Source of the DNA: Methanotrichaceae archaeon
Lineage (GTDB): Archaea; Halobacteriota; Methanosarcinia; Methanotrichales; Methanotrichaceae
Assembly: GCA_963754945.1 (NCBI GenBank)
Contig: CAVWIG010000052.1
Span: 1 to 28,677, forward strand
Length of the DNA: 28,677 nt
Reading direction: 5' to 3'
Both the position numbers and the translations under genes were made by a program. The notes under the pieces were generated by a model that was not told where the DNA came from, did not search any database, and saw nothing but the letters and a program-made list of their open reading frames with translations. Below, in pieces: positions 3,730 through 18,313 of this stretch (positions are counted from its first letter, which is position 1; the number at the start of each line of letters is the position of its first letter).

Positions 3730-4809
3730 TCACGCAACAAGCTTTCTCACTCTTGGACTGATCCATCCACATGCCACGCAACCTTTGGTTAGCAGCTCCT
3801 GGACAGGCGCTTCAGTTCCGCATGATGGACATGTCTCGGTCTCTTCGCCTTCAATCGCCTTTGATCCTAACACCTCAACTATTTTTTCCATCGAATCGAC
3901 GTCACCCGAAAAGCATGCATCTCCTCCTCCATGAGAGATAATGATAGCAGGCCTTGTACTTGCTAAGCCTCCAAGGTCCTTTGTCTCAATGCCCACAGCC
4001 CCTATATCTCCCAGAGATAAATCAAAAGCAATACGCTCATCAAAGTCATGCCACCAGCATACTCTCTCAGATGTGATATACAGCCTGCCAGCCTTCCACG
4101 TCCCTCTGGATATGCCACTTGGTGCAGAAGTCTCCAGAAGATGCCACATCTTCTCGCAATGTACGAGCCCCTCGCCTTTCTTTAAGAATTCGTCCGCATT
4201 TCCGTCCATCACTGGAGTAGACATTTCCTTGCAGGAAAATCCAAGCCAGTTCATCTCATCAACGACAGCATCTTTTACGGCATAGGCATCTGTGGGATGG
4301 AACCTTGCGATGGCACCATTTTTGAGCATGATACATAGATAATCGGTCTCCTTCTTTGCGATGTTCACCTTTCTCTCCATCGCGTAGCCCATTATATCTT
4401 CGTAATATGCTGTGAATAAAATTTCTGCCGGTTCCTTTCTGTATGAAAATATGCGCCCGTTCGTGACATAGATATACCCTGGCCTCCAGCTATGGTATAT
4501 TCCATTGGAGTACCAATGAGTTCCGAAGGTCCTCAAGAGTATCTCCTCGCCTTCCTCCAAGGGCAGCTTGTCAAGCTCCTTTCTTCTTCGCTCTTCTGTT
4601 GCCCATGCCCTTTGGGCTGCATCCCAATCCTCCCATATGCCATACTTGAGCATGGTATCCATTCCAGCGAGGGCTGCTTTGAGATTCAAGCCAAGCAGAG
4701 GTATCCCTGCGACTGAGATGAGCACATCTGCATTTAGCACAAGCCCTTTATCCAGTACCCTATCCAAGAGGTCTACAAGTCCGGCATTTGTGTTCCTTTT
4801 AGGTTCCAT
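3730..4809 (-). CDS. GvpA/J/M-family domain fused to two GRAM/PH-like domains and a zinc ribbon
   Basis: N-terminal LVDLLDRVLDKGLVLNADVLISVAGIPLLGL...YG is the GvpA/J core. It is followed by two repeats with GYIYVTNGR and GRLYITSER, then CPSCG...CVACGW. Confidence 0.85.
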   Translation of the reverse strand: MEPKRNTNAGLVDLLDRVLDKGLVLNADVLISVAGIPLLGLNLKAALAGMDTMLKYGIWEDWDAAQRAWATEERRRKELDKLPLEEGEEILLRTFGTHWYSNGIYHSWRPGYIYVTNGRIFSYRKEPAEILFTAYYEDIMGYAMERKVNIAKKETDYLCIMLKNGAIARFHPTDAYAVKDAVVDEMNWLGFSCKEMSTPVMDGNADEFLKKGEGLVHCEKMWHLLETSAPSGISRGTWKAGRLYITSERVCWWHDFDERIAFDLSLGDIGAVGIETKDLGGLASTRPAIIISHGGGDACFSGDVDSMEKIVEVLGSKAIEGEETETCPSCGTEAPVQELLTKGCVACGWISPRVRKLVA

Positions 4810-5185
4810 AGTTATTCTTTATAACCATAGGCATCTCATCAGCTCGCTCCCTCTTCCTTGCCAATGCACTAGTCCACCCACACCACGGGCAGCACTCGTT
4901 CATCAGCTCTTCTGCCGGCACTTTTTTGCCACACTGCGGACATTCCTCCTTTGCAATCATCGTCTCTTTCCACGCAGCAGTTTTATAATTGGTCCCAGAC
5001 GGGAACTCTAGGCCGTATTTTGCAGCGGTTTCAAAGGATGCAAGCGCTGCTCTAACCTTGATGCCCAGCAGCTCAACTCCTGCAACCGAAACAGTAATAT
5101 CTGCATTGATCACCAGTCCCTTGTCTAATATTCTGTCTATTGCACCAGCCAGCCCGTTGTCTGAATCTTTCTCAAGCTGTACCAT
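4799..5185 (-). CDS. gvpJ: Gas vesicle protein GvpJ (GvpA/J family) with C-terminal zinc ribbon
   Basis: IDRILDKGLVINADITVSVAGVELLGIKVRAALASFETAAKYGLEFPSGT is the GvpJ signature; CPQCG...CPWCGW tail; GGAGG RBS. Confidence 0.88.
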   Translation of the reverse strand: MVQLEKDSDNGLAGAIDRILDKGLVINADITVSVAGVELLGIKVRAALASFETAAKYGLEFPSGTNYKTAAWKETMIAKEECPQCGKKVPAEELMNECCPWCGWTSALARKRERADEMPMVIKNNYGT

Positions 5186-5391
5186 TCATATTTCCTCCGC
5201 TAACCATCTTCTCGGGTACGTCTCTGGTCCACCTGAAAGGCTTGTTCCTCGGGGAGTCCTATTCTGACAACACCACTTACAGGCAGCCCCGGAAAACATG
5301 CCTTTCCCGAGCCTGGAAGGGCCACTCCTTACCTCTCCATACCCTCCTTCCGGAATCTGCAAGAGCTTGGTTATCTATCCGATTCGACCAT
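5186..5391 (-). pseudogene. Possible small (~68 aa) frameshifted gene between gvpG and gvpJ
   Basis: ATG lies 2 nt after the gvpG stop and a TGA abuts the gvpJ ATG. The span is 206 nt, one base short of an intact ORF. Confidence 0.35.
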
Positions 5392-5393
5392 TC

Positions 5394-5645
5394 CTATCTT
5401 AAGACCTCCTCTGCCACCTTGAGATTATGCATCAGCTCTGCATTCGTTCGCTCGTAATCCTCACGCTCCAACTCTCCGAATTCGTAGAGCAGCCTGTTCT
5501 CCTTGATCTGGCTCTTGATTTTTTCGGGATTATACATCTCCTTATTAGCTTGCTTCTGTATTTGCTCTATGGTTCCGATCATGTCCAGCCCAGGGGGCAT
5601 TGATATCCCAAGAGACCTGAGCATGAGATCGTCTATTAGGAACAT
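5394..5645 (-). CDS. gvpG: Gas vesicle protein GvpG
   Basis: MFLIDDL...KEMYNPEKIKSQIKENRLLYEFGELEREDYE fits GvpG; strong AGGAGGTG RBS. Confidence 0.88.
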   Translation of the reverse strand: MFLIDDLMLRSLGISMPPGLDMIGTIEQIQKQANKEMYNPEKIKSQIKENRLLYEFGELEREDYERTNAELMHNLKVAEEVLR

Positions 5646-6890: not shown

Positions 6891-7368
6891 AATCGATCGC
6901 ATTATAATGCATGAGCTGATTAATGATGCTCAAATCCCCTTCAGAAGAATCGCATTAAAGATTGGCATCTCCCCAGAGACAGTCCGGAAAAGATACGAGA
7001 AAATGAAAACTGAGGGGATGATCAATCAATCGATGATATCCGTCAATCTAGAGAAGATCGGGTACAGTGGTCTCACTTTTTTAATGATCGCCAGCAAAGA
7101 CATAGCCGGAACCATCGCCCATCTAAAGAAAATGCGGAACATAATATGTGTAGCCAAGACGACTGGTGATTCCGATATCCTAGTTATGGCCGCATCAAAA
7201 GATATTGCTGACCTTCTCAGTTTAGTTGAAAGAGTAAAGATGCTGCCGAATGTGGATAGAGTGGAGATTTTCTTGAGAACATTAGATGCGCCTTTTCCAG
7301 CAAGCATGATAACCCCTGGAATGGCGTTCCTTCTGAGGAAAAAGGATGTGAAGGGCGTCTTAGGCTAA
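6883..7368 (+). CDS. Lrp/AsnC family transcriptional regulator
   Basis: NEIDRIIMHELINDAQIPFRRIALKIGISPETVRKRYEKMKTEG and TTGDSDILV. TTG 6883 follows GGAGA and overlaps the upstream stop. Confidence 0.92.
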   Translation: MNEIDRIIMHELINDAQIPFRRIALKIGISPETVRKRYEKMKTEGMINQSMISVNLEKIGYSGLTFLMIASKDIAGTIAHLKKMRNIICVAKTTGDSDILVMAASKDIADLLSLVERVKMLPNVDRVEIFLRTLDAPFPASMITPGMAFLLRKKDVKGVLG

Positions 7369-7652
7369 GTTTGATTTACAAACACAAGGGATTGTATCCT
7401 ACTTCTCCTTTGCCAGCTCGTGCACCTCCTTAGACTGCTACTTTATCAACTCTACCAGTAATATGAAAACTGCCTCATACAATGAATCATCCAACGCGTA
7501 CTTCGCCCTCTTGAAATATGCTAACGTCAATTACCTACACGCAAAAACGGCATAAGGACTGAACGATGCCAGGTATAAGGGGCCTTTCGCCATCCATCTG
7601 ATCTACCTCGCTTGATTAAGGAAACTTGACTTTTTAATTACATATTTATATT

Positions 7653-16012: not shown

Positions 16013-16645
16013 ATGCTGAAGATGAGAATACTGCTGGTTCTTGTGTTTTTGCTTTTCATGGTATGTTTTTCTATTAGCATTCCATCTTCAGCTTTTGGCT
16101 CCGCCGCCAAGAACCTGACGGAGAGATCTCAGATCGACTTATGGGGTTACATGGACGAGACCCAGATCTTCCAGACCGATACTGGTTTCGCAGGGACAAA
16201 GCTGTCTTCGAGAGCTAGCGGAAGCGGTCACATCTCTAGAACCCAGTATTCTGATGTCTTTGCCGGACCGAGCTACGATGAGACTATATATACAGAAGAT
16301 GTGAATGCTGATTACAGTCCCTACATACCACCTCCGACTCAGAGTGACCTCAAGAACGCCTTGTGCGCCAAGAACTACGAGGTGGGCTCAGCATTCTCCG
16401 AGAGCTACTCGAACATCCAATCGCTGATAAAAGACACCAGCATCTACCAGGATAAGAACGAATCCATCTACCAGATAGGGTCCTATGTCGACGGCACAAC
16501 CAAGATCGGCACAACAGTCCGGAAGAACGCCAACACAGTCCCGGCTTTGACCATGGGCGGGACCTACATCGGAAACCTAAACATACATATGGAGATCGAG
16601 ACTTTTACTGGAAACTCCTCAGTGCTTACATTGCCGTGTCCGTAG
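16013..16645 (+). CDS. Secreted hypothetical protein
   Basis: GAGGAG RBS, hydrophobic signal peptide, coding-like codon usage; no family recognised. Confidence 0.8.
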   Translation: MLKMRILLVLVFLLFMVCFSISIPSSAFGSAAKNLTERSQIDLWGYMDETQIFQTDTGFAGTKLSSRASGSGHISRTQYSDVFAGPSYDETIYTEDVNADYSPYIPPPTQSDLKNALCAKNYEVGSAFSESYSNIQSLIKDTSIYQDKNESIYQIGSYVDGTTKIGTTVRKNANTVPALTMGGTYIGNLNIHMEIETFTGNSSVLTLPCP

Positions 16646-16810
16646 ACATTCGGAGATTTTTGTATTTTGAATATCCACCAGATCTTCTAACCCCTAGTGA
16701 ATCTAGCTCTACATTTTTGGCAGCATCGAAGACAGCGTCGATTGCAGATGCTCACAAATGAATGAAGCATTCTTATTGAAGGCCCGGTTATCCCACCTTA
16801 GAGTGCTCAA

Positions 16811-16826
16811 CCGAAAATTATTTATG
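16811..16826 (+). promoter_or_regulatory. BRE/TATA promoter upstream of the candidate ncRNA
   Basis: CCGAAAAT followed by TATTTAT, ending about 25 nt before 16851. Confidence 0.55.
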
Positions 16827-16850
16827 TTTTGAAGTTAGAATAATTAACTT

Positions 16851-17124
16851 GCCGCGTCATGTGTTAGCGAGCCATGGATTGAGACGCACCGACAAGAGCT
16901 CGATGGCCGAAATGTGCTCCGTCTGTTGAGCACAATTCGCGGATGTAATCGACGTCCTGCGAACGAAGGCCTATGGGGTGTCGTTCAAATATGTACGACA
17001 TTTCGGTGGCGTACCGGTCAGCTGAAAATCCGTCTGCGGTCAAAAAAGATGCATGCCGTCACGGGCATAGCATGCCGCCCTTCAGCTTTTTGGACCGGGG
17101 ATTCAATGGCAGGCGTGACGCGGC
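16851..17124 (+). ncRNA. Candidate 274-nt multi-stem structured ncRNA of unrecognised family
   Basis: The 5' and 3' ends pair over 12 bp, with about 10 nested helices found by eye. Wobbles are G-U on the + strand. An upstream promoter is present and there is no credible ORF. Confidence 0.7.
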
Positions 17125-17210
17125 CCAAGTACTTTGGGTTCGGTACTTTAACTATCTAATATTGCGGATAATCCCTTTTGGTCTTCGGGGCTTCATCGAT
17201 ATGCTATCGC

Positions 17211-17657
17211 TTATTTACCGAGCTTCCCTCCGGGCACCAGCATTATCGGGACCTTCGAGTGCTGGACAACCTTCTCGGCCACACTCCCGAGCAGGAACCT
17301 GTCTAGCCCTCCCCGACCTACACTACCCATGACCAGAAGATCGACACCTGATTCTTTGGACATCCTTAACAGCTCGTCGCTTGGTCTACCCTCCAGTATG
17401 ACTTTATCGCAGACAACTCCTGCCTGCTTGGCAAGCTCTTCAACGCTATCAGTTGCGTCTTTGCCCTCTTTGAGCATCAGCTCCCTGACCATGCCCGAAT
17501 ACTGGATATAGTCCGACAAGTAGCCCAGCCTGGACGTATCCGCCACATAAACCGCGGTGACCTTTGCACCATGCATTTGAGCAAGCTCAACTCCCATCTT
17601 CGCCGCCTTCTGGCTAGTCTCAGATCCATCTGTTGCAATCAGTATGTTTTTGAACAT
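17211..17657 (-). CDS. uspA: Universal stress protein (UspA family)
   Basis: FKNILIATDGS...DLLVMGSVGRGGLDRFLLGSVAEKVVQHSKVPIMLV. Confidence 0.95.
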   Translation of the reverse strand: MFKNILIATDGSETSQKAAKMGVELAQMHGAKVTAVYVADTSRLGYLSDYIQYSGMVRELMLKEGKDATDSVEELAKQAGVVCDKVILEGRPSDELLRMSKESGVDLLVMGSVGRGGLDRFLLGSVAEKVVQHSKVPIMLVPGGKLGK

Positions 17658-17764: not shown

Positions 17765-18313
17765 GTGGAACCAAACGACCAAGAATTTCTCAGAGCTCTT
17801 CACGAGGAGAAGATCAGGACCCAGACCGAGCGGGCAGATTACATCACAAAGAAGCTTGCTTTTGTTACTGTGCTATTCGGGCTCAGTTCTTTCAACTTGG
17901 GCATCACTATTGCAGAGATTTATTGGCTTCTCTATTTCATACCACTGGTGGCGATCTGTTATGATCTCTACATAATGTCCGCAGATTCAAGGATCAAGAG
18001 GATTGGGACATTTCTGGGCAGGCACCCCTGCTCCCTGGCAGGAGAGGCAGAAAAGCAGTGGGAGAAGTTCTGCATATACTACAGGGATGGCCTTGCCCCA
18101 TCTGCCAACATGTTCTTTTCTATAGTAGTCACAATAGCAGCGGCGGTGTTCATAAGCACTCAGCAATCGTCGGGAGACCATGGATTCAAGGTTTTTTTTG
18201 CCGTATGGTTGGTGATCTCCATACTTACGATTGTAGCACTCTGGATCAGACATAGAAATCTAATCCGGAATATAGGCGAATATGGATCAAAAGATTGGGC
18301 AGTACGCCAATAG
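17765..18313 (+). CDS. Hypothetical 4-TM membrane protein
   Basis: GTG start after AGGGGT; four hydrophobic segments. Confidence 0.75.
   Translation: MEPNDQEFLRALHEEKIRTQTERADYITKKLAFVTVLFGLSSFNLGITIAEIYWLLYFIPLVAICYDLYIMSADSRIKRIGTFLGRHPCSLAGEAEKQWEKFCIYYRDGLAPSANMFFSIVVTIAAAVFISTQQSSGDHGFKVFFAVWLVISILTIVALWIRHRNLIRNIGEYGSKDWAVRQ

Follow-up and report, generated by a model that had tools for sequence, protein, structure and literature searches.

Several large non-coding RNAs of bacteria, among them OLE, ROOL, GOLLD and raiA, are long, intricately folded, covarying and restricted to particular lineages, and each forms its own transcription unit; no biochemical function has been assigned to them. 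For Archaea, we know of very few classes of large structured RNA beyond ribosomal RNA, transfer RNA, signal recognition particle (SRP) RNA, RNase P RNA and guide small RNAs (sRNAs). Here, we describe an archaeal RNA for which these bacterial orphan RNAs are the closest counterparts in kind. It is encoded at positions 16851-17124 on the plus strand of a stretch of 28,677 nucleotides (nt) from a Methanotrichaceae archaeon (contig CAVWIG010000052.1 of assembly GCA_963754945.1; hereafter the window). The original prediction had read this locus as an independently promoted, structured archaeal RNA outside the databases, and this core reading is borne out by the absence of a match in Rfam, by covariation, by a conserved promoter and by contigs from RNA libraries. 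Window positions 16851-17124 encode, as a gene in its own right, a stable and highly structured non-coding RNA, which we hold with high confidence to represent a real new gene family, a class without relative in Rfam or in the literature searched.

Promoter, fold and covariation of the RNA gene

Two covariance models underlie the analysis: R1, built from the window copy and its counterparts in two congeners (275 positions, 85 pairs), and R2, which describes one arm of the RNA, arm B (84 positions, from 25 diverse sequences). The window copy scores 320 bits with R1 and, at 17014-17098, 70.7 bits with R2, matches that hold by construction because it is among the sequences from which both models were built. 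A 12-bp stem joins the 5' and 3' ends of the RNA and closes a fold with two arms, which has the following features:

16811-16825 (+): archaeal promoter, with a B recognition element (BRE)-like CCGAAAA at 16811-16817 and TATA-like TTATTTAT at 16818-16825
16851-17124 (+): structured RNA of 274 nt, domain 1, the short form of the family (evidence: fold z-score, R1 match of 320 bits by construction, covariation, RNA-library contigs)
16851-16862 (+): terminal stem P1, 5' strand, pairing with 17113-17124
17113-17124 (+): terminal stem P1, 3' strand, pairing with 16851-16862
16871-16880 (+): P2, 5' strand, pairing with 17100-17110
17100-17110 (+): P2, 3' strand, pairing with 16871-16880
16884-17012 (+): arm A, with stems 16884-16892/17003-17012, GCUC/GGGG and GGCC/GGCC and an internal loop (helices 5-12)
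16913-16963 and 16979-17000 (+): arm A hairpins, two variable ones within the former and a conserved one at the latter, followed by GCAUUUCGG
17014-17098 (+): arm B, with stems 17014-17019/17093-17098, 17020-17026/17081-17087 and 17036-17040/17074-17078 (helices 13-17)
17048-17072 (+): near-invariant hairpin GAUGCAYGCC-GUNAYG-GGCRU-A-GCA, in which an A is bulged out and the loop has a U-N-A core
17125-17152 (+): 3' tail, with a CCAAG linker and short U-tracts at 17134-17136 and 17147-17149 (from the flanks of 38 copies)

The minimum free energy (MFE) of 16851-17124 on the plus strand is -116.9 kcal/mol, compared with a mean of -94.99 (standard deviation 5.42) for dinucleotide shuffles; the resulting z-score is -4.04 and none of 200 shuffles reaches the observed energy, which answers the folding check that had been proposed. 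All nested helices listed from the sequence are present both in the MFE structure and in the RNAalifold consensus of the three congeners. The family evidence for the fold comes from 40 matches aligned to R1, 38 of them distinct. In this alignment, 90.1% of 2572 pair cells are paired, as opposed to 33-40% when the 3' partners are slid by one to three columns; 73 of the 85 pairs have changed on both sides, and the covariation score is 0.379 versus 0.04-0.06 in the slid controls, values attained in 0/500 shuffles. The pairs are kept by compensatory changes. In P1 (helix 1), 8 of the 12 pairs have changed on both sides with 94.7% of cells paired, and in P2 (helices 3-4) all eight pairs have done so with 80-91% of cells paired. 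Arm B, which also holds an A-rich bulge and the apical hairpin, is the most conserved module of the RNA: helix 17, the hairpin at 17048-17072, has 95.9% of its cells paired, with loop and bulge bases that are invariant in the alignment. The arm A hairpins 16913-16934 and 16936-16963 can be aligned in only 7-9 of the 38 sequences and therefore constitute a variable region. As MAFFT recovered only P1 and the apical hairpin among diverged homologs, covariance models were needed to follow the family.

The TATA-like TTATTTAT ends 26 nt 5' of the first G of the RNA, and both this word and the BRE-like CCGAAAA are invariant in all three congeners. Across 39 copies, the promoter consensus is AcCgaAAAcTAcaAatAt-(24 nt)-GCCGC at a fixed distance on the plus strand, with a BRE-like word at -44 to -33 in 33 of them; the arrangement typical of the family, a BRE/TATA about 26-40 nt before a 5' GYCGC start, is also that of the window. 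The RNA therefore has its own promoter, as had been predicted, with a geometry conserved across paralogs. The accompanying claim of a GC-rich island beginning behind the BRE/TATA stands as far as the rise in G+C is concerned, which is real, but the island is modest (0.35-0.42 immediately upstream, 0.52-0.58 within the RNA). The strand follows from several features taken together. The window row of the family alignment comprises 73 Watson-Crick and 8 G-U pairs among 84, with 3 non-pairs, in agreement with the at least six wobbles counted from the sequence; the family alignment holds 293 G-U cells, and its pairing drops from 90.1% on the plus strand to 82.2% when read on the opposite one, so that the wobbles do point to selection on RNA. 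Together with the promoter on the plus strand and the clear oligo-T runs that other short forms carry at the position matching the 3' tail of the window copy, this asymmetry establishes a plus-strand RNA whose transcription starts at or next to 16851, the G of GCCGC, from a canonical BRE/TATA promoter. At the other end, the family consensus directly after P1 is NCAAR (CCAAG in the window), and 17125-17152 is likely the termination zone of the window copy, the 3' end being predicted. The small hairpin at 17124-17138 that had been proposed to follow the RNA did not hold up: it is no better than chance (z -1.14, with 27/200 shuffles folding as well) and is lost in the two congeners, which have an AAGUAC...GUAYUU hairpin there instead.

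Part of the stretch occurs in 24 metatranscriptome runs, four of which (three peat, one soil, from four studies) were examined; the remaining 20 (peat, bioreactor, freshwater, sediment and soil; shares 0.06-0.14) lie outside the contig count. Contigs on 16868-17133 are present in 4/4 examined runs and have depths of 45-846, compared with 2-38 for contigs of the flanking genes in runs X2 and X4. Stretches left uncovered (16654-16869 in X2-X4; 17140-17190) are not readable as transcript ends, and adapter-like loose ends at 16874, 17095 and 17107 are fragment ends only. The presence of the RNA region in RNA libraries supports, short of proving, the expression that had been anticipated; a discrete plus-strand species of about 275-290 nt is not discernible from contigs.

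Several observations weigh against this reading. The minus strand of the RNA region also folds well (-102.1 kcal/mol, z -4.19), so that the fold alone cannot assign the strand. The pairing of 90.1% is inflated, as the alignment was fitted to the R1 structure, and the relatedness of the sequences means that the 0/500 shuffle control overstates significance. Free of the alignment-fitting bias are the independent folds of 10 diverged homologs, in all of which (10/10) the terminal stem and the apical hairpin form. The contigs show neither strand, ends nor level, and DNA may be present in RNA libraries; one contig of run X1, from a relative with 24 differences, reaches from the upstream gene through the promoter into the RNA, which fits either read-through transcription or DNA. 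Finally, the RNA family is absent from 20 of 105 genomes of the family Methanotrichaceae, complete ones included, and is therefore not essential to the lineage.

Distribution, paralogs and modular forms

BLAST with the 350-nt locus recovered only the locus itself in its own genome and, among 40 relatives, the two congeners at identities of 94% and 89%, plus a match of 29 nt in another genus, which amounts to 4/41 genomes including its own. The 29-nt match pointed to the 25-nt hairpin at 17048-17072, and a pattern search for this hairpin gave matches in 9/105 genomes of the family, with U-A to C-G swaps in the hairpin stem among pattern matches. Each hairpin match sits within an RNA of 236-287 nt that begins 5' with GYCGC behind an AT-rich promoter and has a terminal stem that pairs despite its differing sequence; R1 matches these RNAs end to end. 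R1 detects the RNA in 58/105 Methanotrichaceae genomes and 11/16 genera, mostly at full length and often with 2-4 copies per genome. R2 extends this to 85/105 genomes and 13/16 genera (none in genera g5, g10 and g12), with about 160 matches; each carrier has 1-4 diverged paralogs, and among the carriers are several complete or near-complete genomes such as G022, G058 and G079. Scores of independent members range over 30-79 bits, and the arm B hairpin takes the form GNUGCRYGCC-RUNAYN-NGCRY-A-GCA. R2 found nothing in 146 genomes from 25 other families of the phylum and R1 nothing in 76 genomes from other families of the class; in family f3, R1 gave 0/67 genomes and R2 0/14. Among the genomes searched, the RNA family is confined to Methanotrichaceae.

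The genome of the window holds four copies by R1: the window copy (320 bits), C17:245638-245918 (32.9 bits), C29:41385-41668 (28.4 bits) and C29:289-549 (24.9 bits), the last three detected by the covariance model only. What had been taken for a single gene is instead one of four diverged paralogs here. Another genome has a tandem pair of diverged long forms at a distance of 1 kb (L030:1501-1755 and 2509-2788, both on the minus strand, corresponding to G019:C1:287110-288397).

The hairpin pattern also occurs in a wider set of 39 stretches, of which 16 are from Methanotrichaceae, Methanothrix or Methanosarcinales metagenome-assembled genomes (MAGs) and 23 are bacterial, the latter being about the number expected by chance (roughly 17 by our own estimate). 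When R2 was applied to pattern loci, 14/14 archaeal loci matched, as did 2/8 bacterial ones, weakly (26-27.7 bits) and in one case by the hairpin only. A full-length but weak arm B match occurs in a Gemmatimonadetes MAG (L068:3237-3311 on the minus strand, 27.7 bits, G+C 0.71); it is most likely a by-product of selecting the locus by the hairpin pattern.

The RNA is modular, and the window copy is its short, domain-1-only form. In 28 of 40 copies, domain 1 is directly followed by a second domain (nhmmer), giving a total of 387-500 nt. Domain 2 comprises about 205-220 nt with several hairpins and ends ...CCCGCCUGAGACUCGAUU before a U-rich stretch; RNAalifold of 26 such sequences predicts 25 pairs, and compensatory changes are seen in 10 of these. 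Within the domain, a GCGCUGUG...YGCUG hairpin occurs in two similar versions, which suggests an internal duplication. Domain 2 is lacking in 12 copies, including those of the window and of both congeners and, in the largest genus, five syntenic short forms. In the genome of the window, the domain 2 profile (nhmmer) finds two sites, behind the C17 and C29 copies (L047:4791-5000 on the minus strand, G000:C17:245428-245637; L048:5286-5492 on the plus strand, G000:C29:41670-41876), and none in the window, and here domain 2 never stands alone. At the other extreme, the member found in genus g6 (L091:1481-1635 on the minus strand) is a minimal form of only about 155 nt: behind its promoter it has a terminal stem of 14 bp, GCAUGCAUCCGG and arm B but no arm A inserts, and it likely marks the functional core. 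Variation also affects arm A: many copies have UAA/UGAG as its internal loop, the window's congeners have CCUAAG/GAUGG, and some paralogs carry in this arm a second hairpin similar to the invariant one of arm B.

In the window, the RNA gene is neighboured by usp, which is convergent, and by unknown open reading frames (ORFs); the flanking ORFs at 16013-16645 (+; 210 aa) and 17765-18313 (+; 182 aa) belong to no Pfam family. The other copies in this genome adjoin genes for CysRS, Ku, a GvpD/KaiC-like ATPase and Trm5, and the syntenic short forms of another genus adjoin an EamA transporter gene. Clustering of the ORFs around 36 loci revealed no shared protein, only spurious ORFs over the RNA and local synteny, and Pfam annotation of the neighbours of all four own copies revealed no conserved partner gene. 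Since the neighbours differ among copies, the adjacency to usp is incidental, and the suggestion of a stress RNA tied to uspA finds no support. A 13-nt direct repeat with one mismatch, at 16795-16807 (ACCTTAGAGTGCT) and 17251-17263 (ACCTTCGAGTGCT), brackets the promoter and the RNA; its second copy lies within the 3' end of usp, and a diverged form is also found in the congeners. By a rough estimate, this repeat is probably at about chance level.

Known RNA classes, possible function and rival explanations

None of the 4227 families of Rfam 15 matches the whole window at its gathering score (cmscan), as the original prediction would have it. In E-value mode, the region 16600-17350 gives only four matches (mir-1662 on both strands, snoR66 and snoU13; E 0.85-3.5, 14-19 bits against gathering scores of 43-85), which is chance level, and the long-form paralogs yield one tRNA elsewhere in a locus, one chance-level match and nothing else. 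The models of archaeal SRP RNA (RF01857) and RNase P RNA (RF00373) do not match the locus, and the genome has its own SRP RNA at G000:C18:123506-123821 (180.7 bits) and its own RNase P RNA at G000:C10:32077-32378 (208.6 bits); for tRNA and transfer-messenger RNA, ARAGORN finds no gene in the window. These results agree with the lack of SRP RNA, RNase P RNA and tRNA hallmarks that had been noted from the sequence. A box C/D or H/ACA guide sRNA was rejected as well, the snoR66 and snoU13 models reaching 13.9-15.7 bits at E of about 3. An ACA follows P1 in many paralogs, but as the window has CCA and others UCA or GCA, it is not universal and the H/ACA identity was dropped. By eye, no tandem G-A pairs of a kink-turn flank the conserved hairpin. 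Two further candidates were set aside, a hammerhead, whose CUGAUGA motif occurs in a few paralogs only, and an encoded CCA end, present in only three of the copies examined; a scan for sigma-70 promoters and terminators was left out of account as not relevant to Archaea. Full-text searching of the literature found no description of the RNA, nor did term look-ups in passages of PMC5737381 and PMC2864571, their supplementary motif lists lying outside the scope.

We hypothesise that the RNA would act in trans as an abundant scaffold or decoy, binding a protein via the invariant hairpin and conserved unpaired bases, with paralogs and extra modules (the arm A inserts and domain 2) tuning or extending this role. 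A protein-binding role is suggested by the invariant loop and bulge bases within a hairpin whose stem covaries, and by the second similar hairpin in arm A of some paralogs, which would suit a dimeric binder; the lack of a conserved neighbour gene is as expected of a trans-acting housekeeping RNA. Telling against the proposal is that its mechanism is an analogy with Y, 6S, 7SK and CsrB-type RNAs and that the partner protein is putative. We therefore regard the scaffold or decoy mechanism as tentative, with somewhat less than an even chance of being right, and the whole explanation, in which a new RNA gene family and this mechanism are taken jointly, as falling just short of an even chance.

Of the rival explanations, the one that survives best accepts the same RNA and has it work by RNA-RNA contacts, as a partner, sponge or co-regulator of downstream sRNAs directed against the Shine-Dalgarno (SD) sequence, or of mRNAs. 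In 17/40 loci, the RNA is followed on its own strand and at constant spacing by a separately promoted gene for a small hairpin RNA with CCUCC motifs, and the anti-SD signature, a GGCAAAAGUCGA stem with a CCUCC-type motif, occurs upstream of the RNA in 0/40; this linkage is far from random. In the genome of the window, 2 of 6 sites with the sRNA signature follow the C17 copy (at about 245337, minus strand) and the C29 copy (at about 41969, plus strand), and domain 1 itself carries a conserved SD-like GAGAGGUG/GGGGUG segment. However, this segment is base-paired in the consensus structure (helix 7), no anti-SD sRNA was found near the window copy or its two congeners, and inspection by eye revealed no complementarity to the anti-SD sRNA that is conserved across paralogs. 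Moreover, the tandem arrangement may reflect mere co-duplication of neighbouring RNA genes. We consider this explanation unlikely, though not negligible. Of similarly low probability is a broader scenario. In it, an abundant, modular class of ribonucleoprotein or ribozyme particular to this lineage (155-500 nt, 1-4 paralogs) would be built around domain 1, and domain 1 and the anti-SD sRNAs in tandem with it would together control translation or RNA in a system found in the Methanothrix family alone.

A catalytic or ligand-sensing RNA made compact by tertiary contacts, for example by docking of the GNRA-like GUNAYG loop into the internal loop of arm A, appears slightly less probable still. The complex multi-helix architecture with conserved unpaired bases is in line with such an RNA, the arm A internal loops UAA/UGAG and CCUAAG/GAUGG resemble known loop-receptor motifs, and the minimal form of about 155 nt from one genus retains P1 and arm B. 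Nevertheless, no ribozyme or riboswitch model matches, the RNA does not lie upstream of a regulated gene (the window neighbour being convergent), the arm B loop type does not evidently co-vary with the type of arm A internal loop, and multiple paralogs per genome would be unusual for a single-task ribozyme.

Mobile elements could likewise account for the multiple copies, the RNA being either a regulatory or defence RNA carried by such elements or an ancient repeat resembling a miniature inverted-repeat transposable element (MITE) or a short interspersed element. The copies are dispersed in unrelated contexts, the RNA ends form a 12-bp inverted repeat, and the two tandem copies of G019 are only 1 kb apart. 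A full copy (R1 58.7 bits; L097:6132-6383, minus strand) lies on an IMG/VR contig, between a gene for a ParA-like ATPase (4806-5561, minus strand) and one of the phage integrase family (6917-7501, plus strand); either an integrative element may carry this copy, or a piece of chromosome may have been misfiled as viral. Integrase adjacency is seen in only 1 of about 40 loci examined, and the 14 integrase matches of the window's genome all lie away from its four copies. The paralogs have diverged so far that BLAST recognises a single copy, compensatory and G-U changes maintain the pairs with an asymmetry between strands, and the window copy is syntenic in three species. A MITE or other non-autonomous transposon was rejected, as BLAST finds no near-identical copies in the own genome and there is no target-site duplication, no direct repeat abutting 16851 or 17124; of the two signs that had been named for a MITE, dispersed copies and target duplications, only the first was thus found. 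An origin in mobile elements is in our view improbable.

That there is no RNA gene at all, but a chance-folding spacer, a small ORF (16914-17159 or 16973-17332) or the 3' untranslated region of 16013-16645, is very improbable and largely refuted: although ORFs of 81 and 119 aa overlap the RNA region and a single contig from the RNA libraries connects the RNA with the gene upstream, both frames are disrupted by indels of one or two bases among the three congeners, neither ORF matches Pfam, 73 pairs covary, and the RNA has its own conserved promoter while upstream genes differ among other paralogs.

Comparison with known systems

The bacterial orphan RNAs resemble the window RNA in kind, and the long form found here reaches 387-500 nt; the RNA differs from them in matching none of their Rfam models, in being archaeal, in its 1-4 diverged paralogs and in a short form of only 155-290 nt. 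Archaeal SRP RNA and RNase P RNA (RF01857 and RF00373) are of similar size, about 300 nt, and share a terminal helix that pairs the ends, a strong stand-alone promoter and the character of a stable housekeeping RNA. In contrast to both, neither of whose models matches the locus, the RNA family described here is limited to one archaeal family. MITE-like repeats have dispersed copies and a terminal inverted repeat in common with it, but its copies are highly diverged and show RNA-level compensatory changes, its promoter lies outside the repeat and target-site duplications are absent. The sRNA41, sRNA154 and sRNA162 of Methanosarcina mazei are likewise promoter-driven non-coding RNAs of Methanosarcinia, but shorter, base-pairing sRNAs; by analogy, the anti-SD sRNAs behind many copies may resemble sRNA41 in their logic.

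Methanotrichaceae are the main acetate-using methane producers and account for a large share of the biogenic methane from wetlands, rice fields and digesters, and an RNA conserved in and specific to this family points to biology that is invisible to protein annotation. Its 25-nt invariant hairpin offers a defined target for finding the partner of the RNA. Y RNAs, 6S, 7SK and the CsrB/RsmZ-type RNAs are abundant and trans-acting, with a terminal stem and with several paralogs in which a small protein-binding element is retained amid otherwise drifting sequence. The RNA of the window is alike in its paralogs, its terminal stem and its small conserved element, a working analogy between RNAs that are not homologous. 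We accordingly file it as a new class, for which a function as a protein-binding scaffold or decoy appears the most likely.

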